The notes under the pieces: model-generated
What the model saw: only the letters and a program-made list of their open reading frames with translations
Told to the model about the DNA's origin: nothing
Database searches by the model: none
Shown here: positions 1,676 to 54,307 of the stretch, one piece after another
Layout: every line of letters starts with the position of its first letter
Numbering within the stretch: position 1 is the first letter of the stretch
Virus record (IMG/VR): IMGVR_UViG_3300043184_000020
Length of the DNA stretch: 64,000 nt
Strand: one strand, 5' to 3'
Source: a virus
Program-made: the position numbers and the translations under genes

Positions 1676-2109
1676 GCAAGCTCATCAGACTCCTCCGACG
1701 AGCCCACGCCATAGAGGTGGGAGCTTACCACGCCTACGAGGGACACTGGCGCTCCGTCAAACCTGTGAGCGATCCGGTCAGGGGTAAGATCAAGGACATC
1801 CAGATAGACGAGCTTATCCATCGGGAGAATCTGTTTCGGATGCTCTCAGAACTCAACTCCAAGCCCAGTCGCGCCCAGGACCTAATCCTGCTCCTCGTCG
1901 GAAAACTGGTATCTGCATCCTGTCGGATACTCCCACGGCGCTTGGCTGCCTACGGAGCTTACGTCATGGAGATCCTAGGAGACGTATGCTACGCCCAGCT
2001 CGCTCAGGTTGCGAGGGACGAGGGATATCCTGCCATGGCGGTCGAGCTTGACTACATGCAGCGGACCGAACAAGAACACAAGAGCTTCATGAAAGCTTTA
2101 TCAAAATAG
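1672..2109 (+). CDS. ferritin-like di-iron protein (COQ7/rubrerythrin-like fold)
   Basis: TTG start overlapping the upstream stop; two E-x-x-H motifs (DELIH, EQEH) plus EVGAY and MEILGD helices typical of four-helix-bundle di-iron proteins. Confidence 0.45.
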   Translation: MSKLIRLLRRAHAIEVGAYHAYEGHWRSVKPVSDPVRGKIKDIQIDELIHRENLFRMLSELNSKPSRAQDLILLLVGKLVSASCRILPRRLAAYGAYVMEILGDVCYAQLAQVARDEGYPAMAVELDYMQRTEQEHKSFMKALSK

Positions 2110-2569
2110 TCAACTAATATACCTAGAAACCTACACACATGACGACCCTACAGGGGGTAATAACCTGTTGACCAAACCCAAGCAACCTGGTAAGGTCGTA
2201 AGTGAGCCCTGGTCAGTACCGTAGCGTGAGGATAGTGTGGCGTAGCCAACGGTGTCACCTATCACCAGGCATGGTGTGAGAAAGGAAGTTCATCACCCAT
2301 GAAGCTCAAACCCGTCACCTGGGTATCGAAGTGGTGAGGCTGGCTGGCCTTGAAGGACGCAAGTTTGATACCGAGCCGTACTTGCCGTGAGTCCCCTACG
2401 ACAGTGGGGACACCCACCGCTAGATCACTATCACGCTTGCAGAAACATTACGCAGAGCGATCCCGAGCCCTCAGACCACCATAAACACCTAGTCCCGTCA
2501 AACACTTAGCCACGGGGCGTATAGAGCGTATAACGAAACATTACGCATGATGGGGTGGGGTTAATATAG

Positions 2570-2597
2570 TTGACTGGATTAGAGGGGGACTTATAAA
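2570..2597 (+). promoter_or_regulatory. sigma70-like promoter, TTGACT-N16-TATAAA
   Basis: Best -35/-10 match in the ORF-free region; fires into ORF-free sequence. Confidence 0.5.
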
Positions 2598-2805
2598 AAG
2601 GTCCCATGGTGTGGGAGGGAACTAGGTACCCTACATGGGGGGTCGGACACAGTGTCAGGGACTACCCCCCCGGCCTATCTATCGGATACCATTAGAGAAT
2701 AGGCCGCAAGCTTAGGCCTAACGCGGTCTAGGCTTGATAATGTATGTTATCGCGCCGGTTATCGGGTTAGACCATGCGTCTAGTTCAACGATTAATCCCA
2801 TACGT

Positions 2806-2820
2806 TGGCACGGATCTTGC
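2806..2820 (+). promoter_or_regulatory. sigma54-type -24/-12 element, TGGCACGgatcTTGC
   Basis: Exact match to TGGCACG-N4-TTGC. Confidence 0.45.
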
Positions 2821-2835
2821 GTGCGTCGGGATAGT

Positions 2836-2961
2836 CCCTAGGCTAACCCCCTAAACCCTAACCCCATACCCTTTCCAGTGATACCAATACCTTAACCCTT
2901 GCAAGCCTTAGCCCTAACCCTTTAAACCCCTAAACCCTAACGCCTAACCTATCGCTAACCC
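2836..2961 (+). repeat. unidirectional array of about 12 degenerate TAACCC/CCCTAA units
   Basis: ccctaggctaaccccctaaaccctaacccc...ccttaaccc...ccttagccctaaccctttaaacccctaaaccctaacgcctaacctatcgctaaccc. Confidence 0.8.
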
Positions 2962-2972
2962 ATGCTAGGCCT

Positions 2973-2988
2973 TGGCACGCTGTATGCA
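2973..2988 (+). promoter_or_regulatory. sigma54-type -24/-12 element, TGGCACGctgtATGCA
   Basis: GG and GC dinucleotides at the canonical 10-nt spacing. Confidence 0.4.
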
Positions 2989-3125
2989 TGCGTTATAGGT
3001 GTCTAAGCCTTTGACGCATGCCTATAAGTTGTGCAGCTGATATCCTTAGGGTTTTCCCGTTTTCGCCTATTCCCTTGACGCGTCCGTTATGACCCATCCT
3101 TGAAACCCTTAGGGAATATCCCGGC

Positions 3126-3308
3126 ATGACCCTTGCTTTCACTATATGCATGAAAGTCTATCAGATTGAACTTGAAAGCGGACGGGTCGAATTTATAAAG
3201 GCGTCAACTAGTACGCAAGCGGTCAAGGCGTTATGCGAGTCTATGCGCAAGCGTGGCCGTCCCGTATATATCAGGGTCAAGCGTATCAGCATGGTTAAGG
3301 GTTTTTGA
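3126..3308 (+). CDS. hypothetical protein
   Basis: 60-aa ORF, first ORF after the ORF-free region; weak RBS. Confidence 0.3.
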   Translation: MTLAFTICMKVYQIELESGRVEFIKASTSTQAVKALCESMRKRGRPVYIRVKRISMVKGF

Positions 3309-3317
3309 TAATAATAC

Positions 3318-3346
3318 TTGACGGGTTTAATAAGGCTTGATATCCT
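3318..3346 (+). promoter_or_regulatory. early promoter, TTGACG-N17-TATCCT
   Basis: Shared architecture AATACTTGAC...GGC(C)TTGATATCCTG with the promoter at 5598. Confidence 0.5.
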
Positions 3347-3367
3347 GTTAATGAAAGGTAGGACGTT

Positions 3368-3658
3368 ATGCGTAGATTTTTTTTGATGCGAAAGGTAGAC
3401 GTTTCCGGGACTAGCGGCGTGGGGGTCGTGGCCGAAGGGGTCGTATTTGATAACGGCAAGGCCGCCATGACTTGGCTTTCAGACGTCAAGTCGGTTACGT
3501 GTTTCGACCGCTTGACCGAAGTTATCAAGATTCACGGGCACGGCGGCGCGACGGTCATGGTACTGGAAGGCCGCAAGTCGGACGCGAAAGCTTTCGAGTC
3601 ATGCCTTGACGCGGTACGGGCACGAAAGGCCAAGGCTAAGCATGCGGGGGTCATATGA
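3368..3658 (+). CDS. hypothetical early protein
   Basis: GAAAGG RBS, preceded by TTGACG-N17-TATCCT promoter. Confidence 0.6.
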   Translation: MRRFFLMRKVDVSGTSGVGVVAEGVVFDNGKAAMTWLSDVKSVTCFDRLTEVIKIHGHGGATVMVLEGRKSDAKAFESCLDAVRARKAKAKHAGVI

Positions 3659-4414: not shown

Positions 4415-4484
4415 GGTTTAGACGATCGTCTAAAAGTTATGCGCCGTTTTTGTCACGGCGCTAACGATATCAACGGGTTAAGCG

Positions 4485-4500
4485 TGGCACAGGCCTTGCT
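4485..4500 (+). promoter_or_regulatory. sigma54-type -24/-12 element, TGGCACAggccTTGCT
   Basis: Consensus match about 25 nt upstream of the ATG at 4526. Confidence 0.5.
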
Positions 4501-4525
4501 TGATCATAACTGAAAGGGAAAACAT

Positions 4526-4654
4526 ATGACTAACTTGATGATGACCGAAACCGTCCGAAACCTTGAGACCGTGTTAACCGTGACCTATGTCATCGTGACC
4601 ATATCCATGGGGGTCATGGTCGCGGGTATCGTGGCGAGTTTCAGAAAAGAATAG
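4526..4654 (+). CDS. small membrane protein (42 aa)
   Basis: Below the ORF-track cutoff; same 26-bp RBS and start block as the next gene; MTNLMMTETVRNLETVLTVTYVIVTISMGVMVAGIVASFRKE has one TM helix. Confidence 0.5.
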   Translation: MTNLMMTETVRNLETVLTVTYVIVTISMGVMVAGIVASFRKE

Positions 4655-4683
4655 TTGACTAAACGCATAGGCCTTGAGATCAT
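4655..4683 (+). promoter_or_regulatory. early promoter, TTGACT-N17-GATCAT
   Basis: TAGTTGACT...GGCCTTGA aligned with the other early promoters. Confidence 0.4.
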
Positions 4684-4727
4684 AAAACTAAGCCGGGGAT
4701 GATCCCGGCGCATGAAAGGGAAAACAT

Positions 4728-5543
4728 ATGACTAACTTAATCCTGAACACTAACCCGATCGAAGCGGTCAACCCCGCGTCTCACCTTAACCCCGAAACGT
4801 ACGGTTTCACGTCGACGCGTGAGATTCTAGACGCTTTCGCGGCGCATGGATGGACGCCGGTTTCGAAGCAAGTTGCACGCGTCCGAAACTCGGACCGCCA
4901 AGGGTTTCAAAAACACCTTATCCGACTTGAAAACCCCGCGTTTCAAGGTATCGAAGGCCTTTCGAGCGGTAACGCTTCCCGGCCTCAACTTGTAGTCCTA
5001 AACTCACATGACGGGTCGTCTAGCCTACAGATTTTTTGGGGGTTAGTCCGCATCGCGTGCCTTAACGGTATCATTGCGGGGTCGTCGCTTTCGAGTTTCC
5101 GCTTGATTCACTCTAAGCGAGTCACGGACCGCTTGCCCGAAGCGATAGAACACCTAGTCGGAAACTTCCCGGCCTTTATCAGTCAAGTTCAAAGCTTGCA
5201 AGGCCTCAAGTTTTCCGACGCGGCCTTGACCGAACTAGTCCGGACCGTGTACGATGCACGCTTGCAAGGCGTCGGGAAGGTGTTAGCGGTCGACTATTCC
5301 TTGCCTAACCTTGCACGCGCCGAAGATAACGCGACGGACGCCTTCACGGTTTTTAACCGTGTTCAGGAAGTTCTAATCCGTGGCGGTATCCGGTACCGCG
5401 CCGAAAGGAATAGGCTTGACGATAACGGGCAAGTTATCGAGACGCGCATCGTCGACGCTAAGACTCGAAAACTTTCGAGCGTCACGCAACAAGTCAATCT
5501 AAACCGTGTCGTGTATGACACGGCCTTGAAGCTTGCGGCCTAA
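4728..5543 (+). CDS. DUF932-family protein
   Basis: LNSHDGSSSLQIFWGLVRIACLNGIIAG resembles the NSHDGS...R.vC.NG core of DUF932 (PF06067) phage/plasmid proteins. Confidence 0.55.
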   Translation: MTNLILNTNPIEAVNPASHLNPETYGFTSTREILDAFAAHGWTPVSKQVARVRNSDRQGFQKHLIRLENPAFQGIEGLSSGNASRPQLVVLNSHDGSSSLQIFWGLVRIACLNGIIAGSSLSSFRLIHSKRVTDRLPEAIEHLVGNFPAFISQVQSLQGLKFSDAALTELVRTVYDARLQGVGKVLAVDYSLPNLARAEDNATDAFTVFNRVQEVLIRGGIRYRAERNRLDDNGQVIETRIVDAKTRKLSSVTQQVNLNRVVYDTALKLAA

Positions 5544-5597: not shown

Positions 5598-5626
5598 TTG
5601 ACTAGTTTTATAGGCCTTGATATCCT
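5598..5626 (+). promoter_or_regulatory. early promoter, TTGACT-N17-TATCCT
   Basis: Follows a terminator-like hairpin and precedes the RBS of ORF 5647. Confidence 0.5.
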
Positions 5627-7518: not shown

Positions 7519-7899
7519 ATGGGATACAAGAACTATGCCAGTCAAGAATCGTGCCAAGACGGGGACCGTGTCACGGAAGACGCACGTCAAGCCGGACATG
7601 GGTCCGATCCGACACGTGTCACCGATGACACAGGTCAACTTGGACGCGTGTCCGACGAGACACAGGACGCCTTTGCAATGCTCGTGCCAGCCCGAGATTT
7701 TAAGCTTGGCACGCGATATGCAGGGACTCCCGTCGGAGAGTTTCAGCGCGACGCGGACGGTCGCTATTGGTGGCGACGGGTAGACGGCTCTATCATGGAA
7801 GTTTTCCCCCATCCTTCGGCATTGTTCATGCCTTTGAAAGCGGGGGGATCGGTAGCGGACCCGTATCATGGAGAACTAGACACGCGGGGAGACGCCTAG
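7519..7899 (+). CDS. hypothetical protein
   Basis: GGAAAGGA RBS; preferred over the overlapping frame 7487..7783. Confidence 0.5.
   Translation: MGYKNYASQESCQDGDRVTEDARQAGHGSDPTRVTDDTGQLGRVSDETQDAFAMLVPARDFKLGTRYAGTPVGEFQRDADGRYWWRRVDGSIMEVFPHPSALFMPLKAGGSVADPYHGELDTRGDA
7707..7722 (+). promoter_or_regulatory. sigma54-type -24/-12 element, TGGCACGcgatATGCA (intragenic)
   Basis: Same motif inside ORF 7519..7899, upstream of the tandem 27-bp motifs. Confidence 0.3.
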
Positions 7900-8005
7900 C
7901 GTAGAGAATTCAGCACGCGGGGAGAATCACCCTATAGAGAACTCTGTAGGTGGGTAAGATCGGACACCCCACCCCCTATAGAGAACTTAACAAGCGGGGA
8001 GAATC
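7869..8005 (+). promoter_or_regulatory. four tandem copies of the 27-bp motif (T/G)(A/G)GAGAA(C/T)-N9-GGG(G/T)A(G/A)(A/G)(A/C)(T/G)C
   Basis: Copies at 7869-7895, 7902-7928, 7935-7961 and 7979-8005, each with a 9-nt spacer. Confidence 0.5.
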
Positions 8006-8015
8006 GAGGTTTCAC

Positions 8016-8222
8016 ATGTTTAAGAGTTTCCCATACCCTAACGCCACGCCTTCAAAGGTTCGCATGGTATACGACGCCGCACGACTCCTAGGCTATCCCG
8101 CGCCTTCCTACCTGAAAGCTCAGGAAGCGGCGCACAAGTTCACAGCTGAGGAACTCGAAAGGCTAGTCCGCATCGGTTCACGTCGAAAACTTGCGAGAAC
8201 ACGCTTGACCGTGGTCAAGTAG
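8016..8222 (+). CDS. hypothetical protein (68 aa)
   Basis: Track ORF 7950..8222 trimmed to ATG 8016, which lies 10 nt after the third tandem copy of the 27-bp motif. Confidence 0.5.
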   Translation: MFKSFPYPNATPSKVRMVYDAARLLGYPAPSYLKAQEAAHKFTAEELERLVRIGSRRKLARTRLTVVK

Positions 8223-8326: not shown

Positions 8327-8417
8327 TCCTTAGACTTACTGTCAAACATCTTTACAGCTGCTGAAAAGTTCGACGACATACCGACGACACGGCCTAAGGA
8401 TTTCAAATACTTACAGC

Positions 8418-8433
8418 TGGCACGGTCGATGCA
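8418..8433 (+). promoter_or_regulatory. sigma54-type -24/-12 element, TGGCACGgtcgATGCA
   Basis: In the intergenic region after a terminator, flanked by 16-bp direct repeats, upstream of ORF 8488 and rIIA. Confidence 0.45.
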
Positions 8434-8487
8434 TTAACTATCTGTAACGGCGACGACATACCGACGCCGCAAACGAAAGGACCGAAC

Positions 8488-8658
8488 ATGGGAAACAAGA
8501 TCAAAGGTTACGAGTGGGAAGGCATGAGTCTTGCAATGTACGCCGAGGGTAACACCTTCCGCGTGGTGTCGATCTGCGACGGTTTTCGTAGCGACAAGAT
8601 TTTTATTGACTACTCGGAAGCCTCAAGTTACTTTGATGGTGTACTCACGGGGAACTAA
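8488..8658 (+). CDS. hypothetical protein (56 aa)
   Basis: Below the track cutoff; GAAAGGA RBS; downstream of a sigma54-like promoter. Confidence 0.45.
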   Translation: MGNKIKGYEWEGMSLAMYAEGNTFRVVSICDGFRSDKIFIDYSEASSYFDGVLTGN

Positions 8659-8679
8659 TCCTAACGAAAGGGAAAGAAT

Positions 8680-10710
8680 ATGAGACTAGCACAGCACGCA
8701 AACAAGCTCGAAACTAACGTCCAGGTTGAAAGTCAAAACTTCGGAATCGGTGACGCATCGGTCGTCATCGAGATCTTGAGAAACCGACTCTATCAGCATA
8801 AGATTCGCACGCTCGTTCAAGAGTATATCTGTAACGCGAGGGATGCCCATAGAGAAGTTGACTCGCGGGAAAAATTGATCGTGACGGTACCTAACCGCTT
8901 GAATCCTATCTTTAAGGTTCGAGACTTCGGTCCTGGTATCTCTCCCGACCGCATGCGCGACGTGTTCATCATGTACGGCGCTAGCACTAAGCGCGGGACT
9001 AACAAGCAGACCGGCGGTTTCGGCATCGGTGCAAAGTCAGCATGGAGCTACACCGACTCTTTCACGATCGTGTCGATCACCGAAGGCAAGCGTCGCACCT
9101 ACGTGGCGCATACCGGAGTGAACAACAACGGACGCCTTGACCTCATCGAGACCGTCGACACGGACGAGCCTAACGGCACCGAGATTCAGGTTTCCGTCAA
9201 GCCTAGCGACCTCGAAGAGTTTAAGAACTCAGTGCTCCGAGCTATCCACTTCTGGCCTCAAAAACCTACGCTCAAGGGTTTGGTGGACGCTCCTACTGAC
9301 TCAGGCTTACAGCAAGGTCTGAGCCTTGAACTCGGAAAGCACTTCGAACTCGTGACCGGACTCCCATGGTACGTATCAGGTTCGAACTCATACAGCCGTG
9401 ACCTAATCGCGGTCATCGATGGAGTACCTTACGCTATCAATAGAGAACTTCGCGAGCGGGTAGCTTCGCTTGATGAACTCGCTACCTTGTGCCGTCAGCA
9501 CATGATCTTTCACGTAGGTAACGGACTCATCGAAGTTTCGGCGTCCCGTGAATCTATCGCGGACTCAAAGCAGACGATCGAAGCGCTTGACAAGCTTGCC
9601 TCTGCAGCTATCAAGGAAGTGAAAGCCTACGTCAAGGCCGAGTTTGACAAGGTGAGATCGGTTCACGATTTCATGGGTACGTATTCCCGACTAGAAAAGT
9701 ACGTTACGCTTGACGCGAGCCTCGCTGAGTTTCAAGGCTACAAGATCGAACGCGGAGCCATGAGTAACGCTACGCTTGAGCCTCACTACTTGAAGGAGAC
9801 CGTATCGCCTCAGTATCGCAGTAACTCGGTGGCCGACGGCGTGCGTCGTAACGACAAGACCTCGAAACCCTTCGCGCTTGCAGACTACGGAAACATCTAC
9901 TACGTCGACGTGGTGGAGTCTCGGGTCATCGAGAATCGTCGCCTACGCACTATCCTGGCAACGGCTCGAAACGGTTTCGTACTGATCAAGAAGCACGACA
10001 AGAGCGACCCTAAGCTTTGGAATCAGCTGATCACGGACCTCAACGCTATCCCGCTTTCAAGTGTTCAGATGACGAAAGCCGCTCCGGTTCAGCGAGTCGC
10101 TAAGGCCGTAACCGAGATCACGGTTCACATCCCACGGTCTAACAATCGCGAGACGGCGACCATCAACATAACTTCCAGCATGCACGACTACGTGTACGTG
10201 GAAACGCAAGCCGGTGAGTTTTTGGGATACCGACGCGAAGACCTCACAGATCTTGCCCGGTATCTCGATCAGCACCACGGCGTCAAGCTCGTAGGCTTGG
10301 CACCTTTGACGATCAAGAAGGTCCAAGGTCTGAGCAACTTCCAGTCTCTCGAAAGTTTCTGGAAGGCGTACAAGCCTGAGACTAAGGACCTACGCATCGC
10401 GAAGCGTACACTTTCGAAGAGCTTCGAGATCATGTCGGCTCTTAGTAAAGGTCCGAAGACGCGCTGTAAGTTCTTCTCAAAGATGCAGCTGGAGTATGCA
10501 GACATCGCAAGCTTTGCGAACGAGAGTACTCCTAAGATCATGATCAAGGTTCTTGAGAAGCTCGACGAGGTTAAAGACTTCGTAGAGAACGACTCCAAGC
10601 TCCAAGGTCAGATCGAAACTAAGTACAAGCTGCTCAAGATGTTTGACGCTTATAACCGATTCCGTGGAGATTCTGCAGAGTGGGTTGAATATATTAACGC
10701 TAAGTCCTAA
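8680..10710 (+). CDS. rIIA: rIIA-like protein (GHKL ATPase fold)
   Basis: N-box ICNARDA, G1 box VRDFGPGIS and G2 box GGFGIGAKS; 676 aa; directly upstream of an rIIB homolog. Confidence 0.75.
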   Translation: MRLAQHANKLETNVQVESQNFGIGDASVVIEILRNRLYQHKIRTLVQEYICNARDAHREVDSREKLIVTVPNRLNPIFKVRDFGPGISPDRMRDVFIMYGASTKRGTNKQTGGFGIGAKSAWSYTDSFTIVSITEGKRRTYVAHTGVNNNGRLDLIETVDTDEPNGTEIQVSVKPSDLEEFKNSVLRAIHFWPQKPTLKGLVDAPTDSGLQQGLSLELGKHFELVTGLPWYVSGSNSYSRDLIAVIDGVPYAINRELRERVASLDELATLCRQHMIFHVGNGLIEVSASRESIADSKQTIEALDKLASAAIKEVKAYVKAEFDKVRSVHDFMGTYSRLEKYVTLDASLAEFQGYKIERGAMSNATLEPHYLKETVSPQYRSNSVADGVRRNDKTSKPFALADYGNIYYVDVVESRVIENRRLRTILATARNGFVLIKKHDKSDPKLWNQLITDLNAIPLSSVQMTKAAPVQRVAKAVTEITVHIPRSNNRETATINITSSMHDYVYVETQAGEFLGYRREDLTDLARYLDQHHGVKLVGLAPLTIKKVQGLSNFQSLESFWKAYKPETKDLRIAKRTLSKSFEIMSALSKGPKTRCKFFSKMQLEYADIASFANESTPKIMIKVLEKLDEVKDFVENDSKLQGQIETKYKLLKMFDAYNRFRGDSAEWVEYINAKS

Positions 10711-41009: not shown

Positions 41010-41023
41010 GAGTTTTTTATTAG

Positions 41024-42724: not shown

Positions 42725-45372
42725 ATCTCTGAGATCGTAAGTTCTGAATCTGAGCCAGACAGGGTAGCCGTACCACCGTTTACGCGCCAGTACATGTCAA
42801 GCTTGTGAACTCCGGCTGGAAGGTAGATCTGTTTTGACAAGTTTACTGGAAAGTTTCTGTTGGCTGTCGGGACTTCTACGACCCAGCGTGTTCCTGATAC
42901 CGGCGCTGAGTTTGCGTACAACTGCATTATGATCTGGTTGTTAGCGCCGTTGTTTGAGGCGTTTGCTCCGAAGTCCACTTTGAACCATCCGCCTTTAGAG
43001 GGTACGGTTAAAGACATGTCTGGAAGAGGGATAACGGTAGTGGATGTGGTGGTAGGGCTGCTAGTTACTCCAGTAGCAACTCCTCTGAACTTCTGCCGCT
43101 CTACCAAGCTCTCTACAGGGGAACGCTTCCTGGAGTCTGCGATAGCGCAGCTTCCGATAGGAAGAGTGTTCTGGATCTCGACGTTGCTAGCGACAGGTGA
43201 GTGGACAGGAGTGATGACGTCTACCGTGTCGATCCAGTGAACCGACGTAGTGTTGTTCTGAATTCGAAGTCTGTAAAGAGCTAGAGGTAGGCCACTTACT
43301 CGCATCATGTGTCCGTCGCCAGATCCAGTAGTCATGTTCAAGACGCCGGTCGTGTTGGTGAAGGTCCACCCAGACGTAGAAGAGGACACCAAGGATGGGA
43401 AGTTAGCTAGGGTCAGGTTAACTCCGTTTAAGGAAAGCTGCACGTTGTTAGCTAAAGACCCACCAGCCTCTCCTCGAATTTCAAATCCGGTTCCGTAAAA
43501 CGAGAGTTCTCGAGCAGAACCGCTCGCGTTACTTCCGGCTTCGTACCCCGCGATGTTTGCGGCTGGACTAAATCCTACAGACCACGAAGCGCCCAAGTAC
43601 GTAAACTCTCTGGTCGCCGTCTTGCGAAGAAGACCTGAGCCGATCGAGTGAACGCTAGCTGCGCTGGTGGGTACGTAGTCAGCCATCAGGAAGTGTTCAG
43701 CAAGTTCGATGGCTCCAGATGGGATGGACGGTTTCTTAGGAGCGTAGGTGATAAACCTCGAGATCCAAGGGCTGTTGGTGCCACCCAGTAAGTTTTGAAA
43801 ACGAACAACGTGAGTGCCGTAAGGAAGTCCAGACACAACCTTGCGGAGCTGTCTGACAGATCCCGAGGTTGAGATGGTTCCGATAGAAGTGTTGTTGACG
43901 AACACTTCCATACTTAGGGTACCACCACTTGCTAAGATCTCTACGTCAAGTCCGGTTCCCACGAACGTCAGGGATACAAAGTTTGAGGTGCCGTCGTGAG
44001 CAGCTACGCCTTCAACTCCGTTAACAGGGTCGATACGGCCTTGTAGGGCGGTGAGTGTCGTAGTACCGTCTTCAAGCGTGAAAGCTCGACTAGAGTTTGT
44101 AGGAGTCAAGGTGCTGAAGTCGTCAGAACGGTTTGCTCCGAATTCCCTAGGGCGATATACGCGGATGATGTCTTCGTAGGTGTGGTCAGCTGATGTAAGG
44201 TTCGCTTGCGCGGAGTTCACCGCCGTAGCAGCCTTAGCTACCGACCCGTCAGACTTAAGGTATGTAACTACGCGAGCACCGCGTGCTCCGATGGTGCTTA
44301 CAGAAGCGCCGTCTCTAACGATGGACTCAAAGCCGGTGGTCAAAGCTTGTTGAGCCTCGGAGATCAGGCTGATCTTCTTTGCAGAAGCTGATGCGGTTCC
44401 TGGACGAACTCGCACGTTCTGAGTTTCGCACAGAATCTCAACTCCACTTACTCCGAACGACCACGCTGGAGCGTTAGCCAGTCTGACCTTCACGGTATGA
44501 AGTCCCAGAGCGAGGTTGCTCGTAGCAGGGATGACGTTGTTTGGGTTGTAGTTTCGACCTGAAAGAAGAGTGTTCGCCACAGGCCAGATGTTACCGCCTT
44601 CTGCGCCTCCGTCTACGGACACGCGAACATCGGGGCTAGGGCTTCCGCTACCACCAAGAACTAGGAGGTTAAGTGCCGTTCCGTAGAAGGTAACTTCAAG
44701 ATAATCACCGCTCGTGGTGCTGATGGGCCTGAAGCCGTTTGCGTCGATGGTGTTGGTCCAGCCGTATCCTACGAAGCGAATGAGGTCTCGAGAGTCTCCG
44801 AGCACGCTGAACACTCGCTCACCTGCAGGTCCAAACTCGTTCTCGGTCTCAGTCACGCGGTTGATCGCGATACGCTCGACGCCGAAACGAGCTTTTAGGT
44901 CGTTGGCTAGGTCCGGGATGCGTTTACGGTTTACGATCTGAGTGTTAGGAACTGCGATGGTAAACGATTCGTCTACGAAAGCTTCAAATCCTTTTCCCAT
45001 CACGTCGTAGAGCTGTGTGAAGCGGGAGTCAGTCTGAAGCTCCTGGTCACGCTTAGCTCCGAGCTTGATCACCTCGATGGAGGTGCCTTCGGCCATAGGG
45101 GCGTTAAGGGTGATCTGTGAGCTATTACCTGACTGGTCTACTGAGGTAAAGGAGTAGTTACCGGTCTTAGAAAGAACCTTACCGTCGATGATGACTAGGA
45201 TGTTGTCCGAGTCGGATGCCTGGACGCTGAAGTTAAGGTTGATCACGGACTGCGCTGCGGTGGCAGCGGCCTCAAAGCGGTTCATCACCGGCATTCCCAG
45301 GTTCTGTGGGATGTCGGCGTTGGTTCTCTGCTTGATGTTTACCTTACGATTCAGGTCTAGAGTTTTTGGCAT
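42721..45372 (-). CDS. tail fibre / receptor-binding protein, paralog A
   Basis: 883 aa; shares a module of about 740 aa with two neighbours, including IVNR(K/R)RIPD, VRVSVDGGAEG and four F-x-GTG...G-x-H repeats. Confidence 0.65.
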   Translation of the reverse strand: MPKTLDLNRKVNIKQRTNADIPQNLGMPVMNRFEAAATAAQSVINLNFSVQASDSDNILVIIDGKVLSKTGNYSFTSVDQSGNSSQITLNAPMAEGTSIEVIKLGAKRDQELQTDSRFTQLYDVMGKGFEAFVDESFTIAVPNTQIVNRKRIPDLANDLKARFGVERIAINRVTETENEFGPAGERVFSVLGDSRDLIRFVGYGWTNTIDANGFRPISTTSGDYLEVTFYGTALNLLVLGGSGSPSPDVRVSVDGGAEGGNIWPVANTLLSGRNYNPNNVIPATSNLALGLHTVKVRLANAPAWSFGVSGVEILCETQNVRVRPGTASASAKKISLISEAQQALTTGFESIVRDGASVSTIGARGARVVTYLKSDGSVAKAATAVNSAQANLTSADHTYEDIIRVYRPREFGANRSDDFSTLTPTNSSRAFTLEDGTTTLTALQGRIDPVNGVEGVAAHDGTSNFVSLTFVGTGLDVEILASGGTLSMEVFVNNTSIGTISTSGSVRQLRKVVSGLPYGTHVVRFQNLLGGTNSPWISRFITYAPKKPSIPSGAIELAEHFLMADYVPTSAASVHSIGSGLLRKTATREFTYLGASWSVGFSPAANIAGYEAGSNASGSARELSFYGTGFEIRGEAGGSLANNVQLSLNGVNLTLANFPSLVSSSTSGWTFTNTTGVLNMTTGSGDGHMMRVSGLPLALYRLRIQNNTTSVHWIDTVDVITPVHSPVASNVEIQNTLPIGSCAIADSRKRSPVESLVERQKFRGVATGVTSSPTTTSTTVIPLPDMSLTVPSKGGWFKVDFGANASNNGANNQIIMQLYANSAPVSGTRWVVEVPTANRNFPVNLSKQIYLPAGVHKLDMYWRVNGGTATLSGSDSELTISEI

Positions 45373-45413: not shown

Positions 45414-47699
45414 TTAAAGCTCTTTAACTGTGAAGCTTCTATTACCACCTACCATAGTAGATGTTCCGGAACTTGTTCTCCAGTAAACGTCAAGCTTATG
45501 AGTGCCTGGGGGAAGATATGTTATCAGCGAGTCGGCTAGGACTCCGGTAGCTCCAGCTGTATACGACATAAAGTTACGCTCGGAAGAAATTATAGATCCG
45601 TTAAGCGAGATGGACGCTATGGTTTGAACCCCCGCCACGCTACCGGATGCTGTTCCAGAGTAAGAGATCTCAAACCAACCGCCTTTAGAAGGTACGGTTA
45701 AGGACATGTCCACCATCGGTACTGAAGAAGTGCTTGTGGTGGTCGGGCTTGAGGTAATTGCGTTTGCTGTTGCCCTAAATTTTCTATCGGACGGATTCAC
45801 ACTAGCGTTTAGTACACGACGATCTGCCATGGACATAGATCCGATAGGCAGCGAGTTTTGCAACTCGACCGCCGACTCAGAGTAGCTATGCGTAGGAGTA
45901 ATGATGTCGAGCGTATTTACGATCACGAAGCTGCTAGCGGTGTTGTTGTTGAACCTGACCGTGTAACGAGCTAGAGGCAATCCACTGATTCTTAATCCTG
46001 CGCCTACTGTGGTAGATGCGTCGTTCTGGTCAAGGGTCCCTGACGAGAACGTGACTCCAGTTCCGTAAACACTAGAAGCGAGCGTAGGGAAGTTAGCGGT
46101 AGTTGCAGCAAGGCCGTTGAGCGTTACGCTGATGTTTGTGGATCGGTTAGAAGACGCTCCGAACCTTAGCTCGAATCCAGTTCCGAAGAACGTGTGTTCA
46201 ATGTATGAGTTAGTTCTATCCGATCCAACTTCTACAAATCCGATCGCGCTTGTGTTGACGGTTACGGGAGAGTTAAAGTTCTGAGTTCCACCCGTTCCGT
46301 TTACGTAGATGAACTCTCGGCTGCATTGTTTTCTGAGAACTCCGGTAGCAATCGTATCAAGCCCCGCTGTCGCGTTAGCAACGAAGTCTGCCATGACGTT
46401 GTAGTCGGCTAGTTCGATAGCTCCAGCTGGGATGGAAGGTTTGCGAGGTTGATAAACGGTAAAACTTCTAAAAAAGATTCCTGGGAAAGAAACTCCGCTA
46501 CGAGTAATTCTTACGACATGAGTTCCGTAAGGAAGACCAGACACTAACTTAGTGACTCGAGTACTAAGCGACTGAGTTGATATCGTACCTATACTAGATC
46601 CGTCCACAGACACCGTATAAGTGTCGATTGTGCCGCCTTGGTAGGTAATCTCTGCATCAAGACCAGTTCCCACGAAGGTTAAAGCTATAAAAGAAGTGTC
46701 TTGAAGTTGTATCGCTTCTCCGTTATTAGAAGGAGTTTGACCGACTAAAGTAGTGGTTCCGTCTTCTAAAGTAAAAAATCTACTAGAAGCGGAAGTTCCC
46801 AGCGTACTAAAGTCAGTGGACAGTCCCGCGCCAAACTCGCGAAAGTTATACACACGTGCGATCTCTTCGTTTGCGTGATCGGCTGCGGCGAGGTTCTGTT
46901 GAGTTGCGTTTACAGGTTGTACCGCAGACTGGATGCTTCCTGCAGACGCGAAGAGGACAACTCGTCCACCTCGAGATCCCGTAAGAGCTGTAGGCTTAGG
47001 AGGTAGTGTGACATCGCTTGCGTTGGTTACACGCCGTTGGTTCTGGATCAGAGAACCTTGAAGAACACGTACGTTGGTCGCTTCGTTTAGGATCTCAAAG
47101 CCCCAAGTGTTCATGTACTGAACAGCTGTATGGTTCTTACGAATTCTTACCGTATGAACTCCGGGAGACAGGCCGGAAACTACGGGAAGAATTACGTTAG
47201 CGTTCGTGTTCAAACCGTAAAGATTGATAGACCCACTTACAGCTGTAGCTGCTGTGATATTTGAGCCTTCAGCGCCTCCGTCTACGGACACGCGAACGTC
47301 CATAGAAGCTAGGCCTCCTGGAGCACACAACCAGTTAAGACTTGTTCCATAGAAGGTGATTTCGATGTATGAAGTGGTGTCGTTAGTAGCGCCTACTGCG
47401 CGGTCTACTCGAGCGCCTGAGTTATCGTTCGAGTTCTGCCAGTTTCCTACAAAGCGGATACGATCTTGTACTTCTCCGAGCGGAGCGTACACTCGTTCTC
47501 CGTTCGGACCAAACTCGTTCTGAAGAAGCTCAGCTCGATTGAACTGAACTCGCTCGACTCCGAACACCGCAGCCATAGATTTAGCTGGGTCTGGGATTCT
47601 TCGGCGATTAACGATCTGCGTAAAAGGCACGGCGATCGTAGACGCGTCCTGGAAGGAGACGTCTGGACTGCCTACGAAGTGTTTACCTAATGCCTTCAT
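45414..47699 (-). CDS. tail fibre / receptor-binding protein, paralog B
   Basis: 761 aa; begins directly at the shared module and has no N-terminal extension. Confidence 0.65.
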   Translation of the reverse strand: MKALGKHFVGSPDVSFQDASTIAVPFTQIVNRRRIPDPAKSMAAVFGVERVQFNRAELLQNEFGPNGERVYAPLGEVQDRIRFVGNWQNSNDNSGARVDRAVGATNDTTSYIEITFYGTSLNWLCAPGGLASMDVRVSVDGGAEGSNITAATAVSGSINLYGLNTNANVILPVVSGLSPGVHTVRIRKNHTAVQYMNTWGFEILNEATNVRVLQGSLIQNQRRVTNASDVTLPPKPTALTGSRGGRVVLFASAGSIQSAVQPVNATQQNLAAADHANEEIARVYNFREFGAGLSTDFSTLGTSASSRFFTLEDGTTTLVGQTPSNNGEAIQLQDTSFIALTFVGTGLDAEITYQGGTIDTYTVSVDGSSIGTISTQSLSTRVTKLVSGLPYGTHVVRITRSGVSFPGIFFRSFTVYQPRKPSIPAGAIELADYNVMADFVANATAGLDTIATGVLRKQCSREFIYVNGTGGTQNFNSPVTVNTSAIGFVEVGSDRTNSYIEHTFFGTGFELRFGASSNRSTNISVTLNGLAATTANFPTLASSVYGTGVTFSSGTLDQNDASTTVGAGLRISGLPLARYTVRFNNNTASSFVIVNTLDIITPTHSYSESAVELQNSLPIGSMSMADRRVLNASVNPSDRKFRATANAITSSPTTTSTSSVPMVDMSLTVPSKGGWFEISYSGTASGSVAGVQTIASISLNGSIISSERNFMSYTAGATGVLADSLITYLPPGTHKLDVYWRTSSGTSTMVGGNRSFTVKEL
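46374..46454. repeat. 81-bp perfect repeat, copy 1 (in fibre paralog B)
   Basis: Identical to 49134..49214 by direct comparison of the printed sequence. Confidence 0.95.
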
Positions 47700-52507: not shown

Positions 52508-54307
52508 TTAGTTTACACCAACTACGTTGGGTTGGACAAGGATGCGGGTGGTAGTTTCTACCATACCAACTCGGGTTACCGCATGGTTAGCCGTAGAAGG
52601 TGCGGTTACCGAGAATGCTCCCGAAGCCGTCAAGAACACTGGTTTACCGATGTCAGCGGCTAGGAACGCGGAGTCGCTAGATCCAAGGTCATGAGATCCT
52701 AGGAGGGTTACGGTAACCGAATCTCCAGCGTTTACGGCTACCGTAGACATCACCACGCCGACAACGTAGAAGTTGTCAGCCGAGGTTGCGTCCCTGTCAG
52801 CCTTGTACACGCGTCCAGCAGATTCGCCGCTTCGGGCCATCCTGACCAAAAAGGTCGTGTTGGCCGCCATGGATTCACCTGCGAGCATGTTCTTACGAAC
52901 GGCTGGTGCTCTCTGAACCGCAAGCGCGGTGCCAGCTCCACCTGTAATAGTTGACTGATCTGCTACGTTGCTGTTAAGCTTGTCAGCGTTTACCGCACCG
53001 TTCTGGATCTTGGCCGTGATGACCGAATCCGTAGCAAGATGAGTAGAACCGATGCCGAGAGCTTTAACTCGAAGCGCGTTCGCGTTTCGCTCGATCGTAG
53101 CGTCATCAACCTGAACAGCTAGGCCTGAAGCTCCGGAAGCGATTGCTCCAGCGGCGTCAAGCTTAGCTTTAAGCTCGTTAGAGCCGTTGATCTCAAGAGT
53201 TGGGTTAGAAGCTTCGAGCTTGATCCTGAGCTGACCGCCAGCGTTGCCTGGGTTGGTAGACTCAAGGCCTGACACGGAAGCAAGATCGATAGTGATGGTC
53301 GATCCGCTGACGGTGATCATGTCACCGCCGATCAAGCTTGCGATCGGGTTGTAGAAGTCAAACAGGATAGGGTCAGTGCCGAGAGTAGCTACTGCGCCGT
53401 ACTGAACGTATACGCGTCCTTTGTTGACGGTACCGTTCTGAACAGGAACCCAAGCTCCGTTGATCTCGTCGATAGGAGACAGACTGTCGAAGTCCGTAGC
53501 GCGAGTCCACGCTCCAGCTGCTACGACGTAGATACCGTTCTGAGAGGTTGTGGATTGATCCTTAACGAGAACTCGATCCCCTGCGATGACCGACTCTCCG
53601 TCGATAGTCTGAGTACCTGAAAGAGTGATGTTTCCAGTGGTAGCAGCTCGAACACCTTTCTTAGGAGCGAGTCCAAGGGCAACGGCATCGACGTAAGCTT
53701 TGGTGGCCGCGTCTTGTGCGGCTGTGGGGTCTGCCACGCTGGTAAGCTTAAATCCACCGAGAGACTGATCTGCCGTGAAAGCTACCGAACCATCACGTTG
53801 AATCGCTGTAGCAACCAAGCCAAGGTTGACGTCTGCGTCCGGCATGGTGATGGTGCGGACTGTAGAAGCTGAGATGGCCGAAGCTTGGAAAGCGATCTTC
53901 TTAGAAGGTGTGGCGTCGTCGCTGATGCGGAACACGTTATCCGCGAAGTCGGTTCCACCAGCGCTGGCGAGAGCTGTATCGATAGCTTCGAGGTGGGCTC
54001 GAACATGGTTCTGAGCGGGAGTATAGTTAGTAGGGGTGGTGCCGATACCGATGCGCTCTGCGCCCATGGTGCCAGAGATCGATCCAAGCTCAGTCTCGGT
54101 AAAGTAGCGACCATCGTGCGTGTGGTACGTAGCGTCGACGTCTGAGCCGTTCTGAAGAGCGATCAGACGATCCAGGATAGTTTTCGTAAGCTCCGTAGGA
54201 GTCGAGGTACCAACCTTGAGGCTTCCGACTACCAGAGTATTCTGGGATATGTCGATGTTGCGTTGGACGCCATCGACTAATCTTGAGATTAGAGAAATAT
54301 CAGCCAT
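52508..54307 (-). CDS. tail fibre protein
   Basis: THDGRY and AAQDAATKAYVDA motifs, recalled from memory as common in phage fibre shafts; Gly/Ala/Thr/Ser-rich beta composition. Confidence 0.6.
   Translation of the reverse strand: MADISLISRLVDGVQRNIDISQNTLVVGSLKVGTSTPTELTKTILDRLIALQNGSDVDATYHTHDGRYFTETELGSISGTMGAERIGIGTTPTNYTPAQNHVRAHLEAIDTALASAGGTDFADNVFRISDDATPSKKIAFQASAISASTVRTITMPDADVNLGLVATAIQRDGSVAFTADQSLGGFKLTSVADPTAAQDAATKAYVDAVALGLAPKKGVRAATTGNITLSGTQTIDGESVIAGDRVLVKDQSTTSQNGIYVVAAGAWTRATDFDSLSPIDEINGAWVPVQNGTVNKGRVYVQYGAVATLGTDPILFDFYNPIASLIGGDMITVSGSTITIDLASVSGLESTNPGNAGGQLRIKLEASNPTLEINGSNELKAKLDAAGAIASGASGLAVQVDDATIERNANALRVKALGIGSTHLATDSVITAKIQNGAVNADKLNSNVADQSTITGGAGTALAVQRAPAVRKNMLAGESMAANTTFLVRMARSGESAGRVYKADRDATSADNFYVVGVVMSTVAVNAGDSVTVTLLGSHDLGSSDSAFLAADIGKPVFLTASGAFSVTAPSTANHAVTRVGMVETTTRILVQPNVVGVN

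Follow-up and report, generated by a model that had tools for sequence, protein, structure and literature searches.

An untranslated segment with a conserved core at the head of an early gene block in an uncultured phage, considered as a transcription-control region

The viral DNA analysed here (IMG/VR record IMGVR_UViG_3300043184_000020; 64,000 nucleotides (nt), hereafter the window) contains a 1016-nt segment at 2110–3125 that does not code for protein. We read it, with confidence about evenly divided, as an untranslated transcription-control region, comprising a terminator or insulator together with promoters, that heads a block of early genes. The lack of any open reading frame (ORF) of 60 residues or more on either strand, stated in an earlier note made from the letters alone, was confirmed, and the segment is the longest ORF-free gap in the window, the next three spanning 313, 273 and 181 nt. 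Its ORFs of 33–52 residues had no PHROG match, six-frame tblastx revealed no similarity to any locus compared, blastn gave no match in phages, plasmids or E. coli genomes, and Rfam and ARAGORN returned no RNA family or tRNA match within it. The segment carries one sigma-70-like and two sigma-54-type promoter elements (Table 1). Early-gene control and termination regions are a familiar kind of element; unusual in this one are the conserved −24/−12 boxes, the extreme C-rich array and a core of 250 nt. The general idea of the earlier note, namely a non-coding regulatory boundary with promoter-type elements before early genes, was upheld, while its specific readings fared worse.

In the arrangement we favour, RNA polymerase arriving from the upstream plus-strand operon would pass the stop codon at 2109 without meeting an intrinsic terminator and would go on to transcribe approximately 1 kb of ribosome-free RNA. 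Rho would load on the C-rich, G-poor tracts, at 2412–2511 and above all along the array, and termination at or after the inverted-repeat hairpin that follows would insulate the early block from upstream transcription. Rho would likewise end transcripts that begin within the segment, at 2570 or 2806. The early genes would then restart from promoters at the right edge, namely the −24/−12 element at 2973, an extended −10 at 3038 and a canonical promoter at 3318. The simplest view of the invariant boxes of the core would be that they are DNA sites, bound by protein or close to promoters, through which these starts are regulated.

The core is homologous to stretches of two Logan contigs, SRR29109021_87632 (L005), found through the Acb5-like gene of the window (a precomputed Pfam assignment, PF26761), and SRR8936462_353788 (L089), found through the list of helicase relatives. 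The blastn expect values of the core matches were 3e-8 and 5e-8, and a three-way alignment was made. Identity between the window and L005 was 62–67% in the core, compared with 66–68% for the helicase gene, 63–67% for the Acb5-like gene and 49% for shuffled controls; between L005 and L089 it was 77–80% in the core and 76% in the helicase. As the identity of the core matches that of the helicase genes, it is constrained about as strongly as coding sequence, and it is under purifying selection at the sequence level in these three related phages. Invariant positions comprise a first set of boxes, GTGnGGG..CTAGGTAC..GGG..CACAGTG..TAnCCCCC, at 2609–2671, a second, AGGCnTnATAAT-N4-GTTATCGnGCC, at 2730–2756, and GGGATAG at 2826–2836, with a weaker box, GAGCGTATAA, directly upstream of the core at 2524–2533. 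The stem of the imperfect palindrome at the second set was kept in all three phages, and its two variable pairs change on one side only, with no compensation. Conservation follows sequence rather than structure, which suggests DNA that binds protein or lies close to promoters, or else an RNA recognised by its sequence.

The core is a new non-coding element without a described family. An nhmmer profile built on it found one copy each in the window, L005 and L089, and none in approximately 170 other loci, the 80 from bacterial genomes among them. Blastn and tblastn found no copy in 66 helicase-anchored or seven exonuclease-anchored IMG/VR loci, neither the conserved boxes nor a 35-mer of the window had an exact-pattern match in IMG/VR or the JGI metagenomes, and no related sequence was found in GTDB genomes. 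In L005 the homologous gap, 645 nt without called genes, is followed directly by a small ORF of 39 residues and then by the Acb5-like gene, and L089 has approximately 700 nt of untranslated sequence ahead of its first small early ORFs; overall, the untranslated gaps of the relatives at this place span approximately 580–700 nt. A candidate micro-ORF inside the core (HS..YPP...(I/V)GY, window 2648–2695, plus-strand frame from CAC), with eight residues common to the three phages and two synonymous-type changes among them, was judged unlikely since its start, length and upstream frame are not kept, there being a stop codon in L005 and a 1-nt indel in L089.

Outside the core, the left 400 nt (2110–2520) and the right 280 nt (2846–3125) of the segment aligned to the relatives no better than shuffled sequence. 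The left part, which holds the hairpin at 2391–2411, the first copy of a 13-nt direct repeat and the C-over-G tract at 2412–2511, had a global identity of 53% to its L005 counterpart, with shuffled controls at 49% (maximum 54%). Its base composition is T-poor, resembling the upstream coding strand. These features, together with the lineage-specific array, would suit a segment that is mostly neutral spacer, with a decayed gene on the left, a CCCTAA array produced by slippage and only a short promoter region that matters. We nevertheless regard this as improbable: the central core is clearly constrained, tblastx shows no gene remnant, the relatives keep untranslated gaps at this place with their C-rich composition, and phage genomes rarely tolerate so much neutral DNA. 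The direct repeat reported earlier, GAAACATTACGCA at 2442–2454 and 2535–2547, was verified; by our own arithmetic, approximately 0.007 exact 13-mer pairs are expected in 1 kb.

Rho-dependent terminators and insulators occur in untranslated leaders of phages and bacteria, an example being lambda tR1, downstream of PR, with its rut sites. The segment resembles them in its ribosome-free stretch, where a tract of 78 nt or more has far more C than G, with the C regularly spaced, and a hairpin comes no more than 150 nt later, and in its place between a promoter or upstream operon and the next genes; it differs from lambda-type terminators in that no boxA/boxB-type nut element or antiterminator gene was identified here. 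The TAACCC-type array of the earlier note was found as CTAACCC/CCCTAA repeats, with five of the 12 plus-strand CCCTAA copies of the window falling within 2849–2940, although its Tandem Repeats Finder score was weak. The 78-nt window with the best C/G ratio in the 64 kb is 2843–2920 (34 C, 5 G, ratio 6.8, with regular C spacing), and all 60 windows with a ratio above 4 lie within 2831–2968. Among 100-nt windows, the strongest excess of C over G is at 2845–2944 (43 C, 6 G) and the fourth strongest at 2412–2511, while the strongest excess of G over C in the 64 kb is at 2548–2647. The only two four-tract C-run patterns of the window, of the type associated with i-motifs or opposite-strand G-quadruplexes, are at 2847–2871 and 2912–2937. 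The array is mostly unpaired in the minimum-free-energy fold.

The criteria of RhoTermPredict for rut sites are a 78-nt window with C/G above 1 and a C every 11–13 nt, followed by a hairpin within 150 nt (PMC6407284). Such a window with regular C is present at 2843–2920, and a hairpin within that distance is provided by the inverted repeat with arms at 2983–2999 and 3008–3024 and an 8-nt loop, which could be an RNA polymerase pause hairpin or an operator. Compared with rut-type sites, the array is a degenerate heptamer array whose ratio of 6.8 lies far above the tool's threshold of 1, and its Rho dependence is a prediction. A scan for intrinsic terminators detected none on the plus strand between 2109 and 3125. 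C-rich, G-poor plus-strand tracts recur in the gaps of the relatives without sequence similarity: L005 9576–9675 ranks second in 20 kb, L089 1506–1605 and 1979–2078 rank first and third, and 263–362 ranks first in a more distant relative, L093.

The sigma-70-like site at 2570–2597 had been described as a strong promoter. Its TTGACT-N16-TATAAA sequence is present and the −35 is of the phage's own type, but its strength was overstated: no −10 register (N16 TATAAA, N17 ATAAAA or N18 TAAAAA) joins an A at position 2 with a T at position 6, all other promoters of this phage keep the final T that is missing here (TATCCT, GATCAT, CATCCT), and the site was not among the promoters listed by a consensus scan. 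It aligns with TTGAGT-N15-TATAGT in L005 and TTACCA-N16-TACTAT in L089. The TAGTTGACT box recurs, as previously reported, at 2567, 4652 and 41021 and inverted at 2108–2116; a fifth copy was found at 52948, giving five against 0.65 expected in 64 kb. The copy at 41021 provides the helicase, a lone plus-strand gene in this phage, with a promoter of its own, and the inverted copy, along with the stop codon at 2109, is covered by the most AT-rich 40-nt window of the 64 kb (2086–2125, 25% GC), at the left edge of the segment.

Right of the array, a scan for a cluster of early sigma-70 promoters gave 3318–3346 as the sole canonical one and 3038–3046 as an extended −10 without a −35. The former, TTGACG-N17-TGATATCCT, has a near-identical twin at 5598–5626. 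TGATATCCT is the extended −10 of the canonical promoters of this phage, with exact copies only at 3038, 3338 and 5618; the first of these, at 3038–3046, belongs to the first of two diverged tandem units and is not a canonical promoter, as its spacing to TTGACG is 24 nt. Further downstream, GAAAGGGAAAACATATGACTAACTT is duplicated at 4500–4535 and 4700–4740, so that a 42-residue ORF (4526–4654) begins like the DUF932 gene (4728), and this looks like a partial copy of a promoter and gene start.

Both sigma-54-like sites of the earlier note were confirmed, TGGCACGGATCTTGC at 2806 and TGGCACGCTGTATGC at 2973, and among the small features they are the least random. Exact TGGCAC-N5-nTGC occurs seven times in the window against 0.31 expected, a count reached in none of 100 shuffles, and the fixed GG-to-GC spacing of −24/−12 elements, assessed as TGGCAC-N5-TTGCW, is present at 2806, 2973 and the five other exact sites (4485–4499, 7675–7689 on the minus strand, 7707–7721, 8418–8432, and 52920–52934 on the minus strand). 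Five plus-strand boxes thus fall between 2806 and 8432. Boxes 4485 and 8418 lie in intergenic gaps (4415–4727 and 8407–8679), 41 nt before the ATG of the 42-residue ORF, which is hydrophobic, and 71 nt before a small ORF upstream of rIIA, respectively; the divergent boxes 7689 and 7707 are inside a called gene of 126 residues. Nine exact sites were read across the window, L005 and L093, and in eight of them TGGCAC is followed by the consensus G. With TGGCAY-N5-nTGCW, six sites were found in L005 (0.17 expected), three in L089 (0.09 expected) and one in L093, of which four of six in L005 and three of three in L089 are outside called genes, and the homologous gaps of L005 and L089 each hold one minus-strand and one plus-strand site. 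Between these two relatives, TGGCA and TGCA are kept and the 5-nt spacer has diverged, which is the footprint expected of a −24/−12 promoter. The sites at window 4485, L005 9778 and L089 2185 precede the ATG of a small ORF by 40–44 nt, and a transcription start approximately 12 nt past the GC would give each a leader of 14–18 nt with a Shine-Dalgarno sequence.

Sigma-54-like promoters have been reported in the virulent Pseudomonas phage YuA (PMC10914365). The sites described here are like sigma-54 promoters in their TGGCAC(G)-N4/5-TGCA sequence, exact GG-to-GC spacing, enrichment and mostly intergenic position, but differ in that no enhancer-binding protein or upstream activator site was identified. 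That the −24/−12 elements are working sigma-54 promoters, with the core as an enhancer platform for activator binding, we consider unlikely. On that reading, one part of the early programme, including the small membrane-peptide ORFs and the Acb5-like leader, would depend on the enhancer-dependent sigma factor of the host. The motif could instead be an activator site, as several copies are followed, 40–55 nt downstream, by a TAGTTGACT box of the sigma-70 type. The palindrome core ACGATCGT was considered as the activator site and rejected: it has six copies against 1.6 expected, but no fixed relation to the sigma-54-type sites. As separate observations, a perfect 18-nt palindrome, TTTAGACGATCGTCTAAA, lies at 4417–4434, and its core ACGATCGT also occurs at 9064, 30875, 42597, 52231 and 59594, with four of its six copies between ORFs, as well as in the homologous non-coding gaps at L005 9250 and L089 1657.

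Several points weigh against the control-region reading. All of its functional steps are inferred from sequence, Rho and RpoN are assumed to exist in the host, and the left 400 nt are given no role. L005 and L089 share the C-rich composition but not the CCCTAA array itself, so that the extreme array may be a recent expansion without function. The 2570 promoter lacks a proper −10, and the TTGACG boxes at 3011 and 3075 are without a correctly spaced −10. The site at 2806 has no positional counterpart in the relatives, which have a minus-strand site nearby instead (L005 9533, L089 1938). Finally, no enhancer-binding protein with PF00158 (Sigma54_activat) was found among the ORFs scanned or the precomputed Pfam lists, approximately 52 kb of the genome lying outside the window; an activator from the host is possible.

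A different possibility is that the segment acts through one or more non-coding RNAs, such as a 300–400-nt transcript from 2570 that comprises the core and an unstructured C-rich tail or, in L005 and L089, a minus-strand RNA from the −24/−12 site. Through its single-stranded C-rich motifs, such an RNA would base-pair to ribosome-binding sites rich in G or would titrate a factor, and this overlaps partly with the control-region reading. In its favour, all three phages have promoter-like elements that align immediately before the core, the core equals coding genes in its conservation, the early ribosome-binding sites of the phage are G-rich (GAAAGGGAAAACATATG three times), and L093 has a textbook small RNA at the equivalent position (folding z-score −7.0). 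Set against this are the defective −10 at 2592, a putative promoter strand that differs between the window and its relatives, the missing plus-strand intrinsic terminator and the one-sided changes in the shared hairpin, in addition to the folding results below, and on balance we consider the RNA alternative rather unlikely.

The earlier note had also called the segment dense in hairpins. The three that it named are present (2391–2396/2406–2411, 2637–2643/2664–2670 and 2672–2678/2699–2705), but the number of stems is only moderately above the average of the window. Perfect 6-bp stems number 15, where other 1016-nt windows have 8.4 ± 4.8, which places the segment seventh of 63; for 7-bp stems the count is six, where the others have 1.9 ± 1.9, and the segment is fourth of 63. 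Folding z-scores against dinucleotide shuffles were −0.8 for 2110–2600 and −1.5 for 2600–3000, further single-sequence values were −1.9 and −2.4, and only 2901–3100 stood out (z = −3.9). The RNAalifold covariation terms were unfavourable on both strands (+2.23 kcal/mol on the plus and +0.57 kcal/mol on the minus strand), in a comparative set of three sequences (window, L005, L089) that is too small for a real covariation test. Searches with Rfam 15 gave no hit at the gathering score in the window, none at E ≤ 10 in 1900–3500 and none at E ≤ 1 in L005, L089 and L093. The suggestion of a structured RNA was thus not borne out, and the comparison with relatives, proposed as a check, returned conservation (the core in L005 and L089) and no covariation. 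Long-range pairing between the G-rich tract at 2548–2647 and the C-rich array was discarded, as the 401-nt fold was no stabler than those of shuffles.

The unit of L093 (236–336, at the equivalent intergenic place) consists of a TTGACA-N17-TATAGT promoter, a hairpin whose 22-nt loop is C-rich and includes CCUCC, which resembles an anti-Shine-Dalgarno sequence, and a strong intrinsic terminator; beyond the unit are a box of the sigma-54 type and repeats of GACTAAA. In the window, the gap at 7860–8010, before an ORF at 8016, contains three direct repeats of approximately 30 nt, TAGAGAAYT..GCGGGGAGAATC.

The earlier note had likened the layout to the physical left end of T7-like and other terminally redundant genomes. 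The left end of T7 has a terminal repeat, short heptamer arrays, the early promoters A1–A3 and the anti-restriction gene 0.3, and CCTAAAG-type arrays stand beside the terminal repeats. The segment is similar in its order of a heptamer-like array, host-type promoter elements and an anti-defence-type gene, but belongs to a genome of approximately 116 kb with a baseplate-J protein, and the array is not conserved in the relatives. A T7-type genome (approximately 40 kb, with a single-subunit RNA polymerase and T7 gene order) is not what was found, and no phage RNA polymerase was detected among the ORFs scanned in the window. If the segment nevertheless held a genome end, as a terminal-repeat boundary or packaging site, DNA would enter here and expression would begin with the anti-defence and early genes. 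This T7-analogous layout, with the Acb5-like gene as second ORF, the status of the segment as the largest non-coding gap in the window and the AT-rich 40-nt window at its left edge would agree with such a function; the co-oriented flanking genes, in a plus-strand block that continues at least 8 kb further upstream, the phage not being T7-like and an array that varies where a packaging signal should be conserved argue against it. All four assemblies fetched have the homologous place in the interior of the contig, which also speaks against an end, although the assembly graphs of terminally redundant genomes close into circles and contig position is consequently neutral on this question. We give a genome end little credence.

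A replication origin, with the short repeats as initiator-binding iterons and a promoter that primes replication or activates unwinding, in the manner of promoter-dependent phage origins, is very improbable. The segment does hold short direct repeats and palindromes (two copies each of GCGTATA and GTTATCG, the 13-nt repeat and the TTGACG boxes), promoter-like elements adjoin them, and the strongest G-over-C and C-over-G windows of the 64 kb are both located here. However, the repeats are few and irregular and form no regular iteron array, no initiator gene is adjacent, the cumulative GC skew has no turn at the segment, and no DnaA box, TT(A/T)TNCACA, occurs in 2110–3125, the single match in the 64 kb being at 46846. 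Nor is there an extended AT-rich unwinding tract: GC content is 50–53% across sub-segments, with only two AT-rich spots of 40 nt, 2086–2125 and 2560–2599 (25–33% GC). The suggestion of an origin in the earlier note accordingly found no backing in DnaA boxes or an unwinding tract.

The untranslated repeat region of T5 (iss) has eight ordered DnaA boxes and lies in the 10-kb terminal repeat, next to A1/A2/dmp (bioRxiv 10.1101/866236). The segment resembles it in size, in repeat content, in conservation among relatives above that of some neighbouring ORFs and in bordering the first-expressed genes of a phage of approximately 120 kb. As a non-coding region conserved among relatives, it is matched by the core, with flanking repeats that are not conserved, but the segment lacks the DnaA boxes that are the hallmark of iss. 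The only sign of relatedness to T5 was a PolA approximately 29% identical to that of T5-like phages; a baseplate-J protein is present in this phage, and no A1/A2/dmp homologue was noticed in the Pfam and PHROG scans.

Table 1. Positions of the segment and of its elements in the window.
Feature	Position	Strand	Remarks
Whole untranslated segment	2110–3125	none	Between the rubrerythrin/COQ7-like gene and the 60-residue ORF
Left part	2110–2520	none	Specific to this phage; not alignable to relatives
Promoter-like site	2567–2597	+	Family-type TAGTTGACT −35 box after an A/T-rich stretch, N16, TATAAA
Conserved core	2600–2845	none	Homologous to L005 9333–9585 and L089 1738–1992
Imperfect palindrome/hairpin in core	2730–2756	none	GATAAT-GTAT-GTTATC flanked by GGC/GCC; invariant
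−24/−12 element TGGCACGGATCTTGC	2806–2820	+	Sequence match to TGGCAC-N5-nTGC
C-rich, G-poor array	2843–2965	+	Rut-like for plus-strand RNA
−24/−12 element TGGCACGCTGTATGC	2973–2987	+	Near-consensus plus-strand counterparts at L005 9778 and L089 2185, near the right end of the gap
Inverted repeat	2983–3024	none	17-nt arms, core GCATGCGT/ACGCATGC, 82% complementary; overlaps the −12 box and a TTGACG box
Two diverged tandem units	3003–3125	+	Approximately 64 nt each, both with a CTTGACGC box and a TGAnAnCCTTAGGG box
Canonical promoter	3318–3346	+	TTGACG-N17-TATCCT with TG; outside the segment, ahead of the Acb5-like gene

The segment sits within a long plus-strand block that extends at least 8 kb upstream, with co-oriented flanking genes. 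Upstream genes encode an AAA protein, a UDG, a DEDD exonuclease, an RlaP nucleotidyltransferase and a rubrerythrin/COQ7-like protein (1672–2109); downstream are the 60-residue ORF (3126–3308), the Acb5-like gene (3368–3658), DUF932, GP88, rIIA and rIIB. The change in gene content across the segment that the earlier note had pointed out was thus evident, with RlaP and the rubrerythrin/COQ7-like gene before it and the Acb5-like gene, DUF932, GP88 and rIIA/rIIB after it. The proteins of L005 are 74% (exonuclease), 64% (helicase) and 61% (Acb5-like) identical to those of the window phage. Synteny through the rubrerythrin/COQ7-like gene was abandoned, as its relatives L001, L003 and L004 are without the gap, and so was the comparison with Acb5-like relatives in other phages (L009–L015), where the gap is absent and the context different.

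The first 12.1 kb of the window are identical to part of Logan contig SRR13020431_38772 (109,981 bp), and the same proteins were found on a JGI contig of 116,349 bp. Megablast and blastn gave no close relative of the phage in public phage, plasmid and E. coli records, and its PolA, terminase and helicase are merely 20–35% identical to those of isolated phages. The gene set includes a portal, a baseplate-J protein, PolA, a DnaB/prim-pol protein, a GroEL-like chaperonin, rIIA and rIIB. Relatives of the helicase are numerous on contigs of approximately 100–124 kb, which makes this a sizeable uncultured lineage. The Logan contig of this phage stops at window position 43029, within a tail-fibre-like gene of 883 residues; if the genome is approximately 116 kb and the assembly circular, some 6.4 kb of the tail-fibre region would be absent from the Logan assembly. 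The replication module (helicase, GroEL-like, PDDEXK, DnaB/prim-pol and PolA genes; window 14155–40777) of the window phage and L095 is inverted with respect to that of L093, L094 and L005. Helicase homologues P0143, P0169, P0215, P0223 and P0224, of approximately 800–830 residues, contain intein or homing-endonuclease domains (PF05203, PF05204, PF14528), so that inteins have invaded this family of phage helicases.

The conserved core provides a defined target for deletion and binding work, and if a genome terminus were mapped here, the segment would define the polarity of DNA entry in the lineage. If the promoter elements do work with sigma-54, the boxes conserved in these three phages would add to a class of promoters that very few virulent phages, such as YuA, have so far been reported to possess, and would link early expression of the phage to a sigma factor of the host's stress or nutrient response. 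If our reading of the segment holds, it would be the early-gene control region of an uncultured lineage, represented by contigs of approximately 100–124 kb and with no close relative in the phage collection searched, and would show by what means the genes for anti-defence and host takeover are shielded from transcription arriving from upstream and are turned on.

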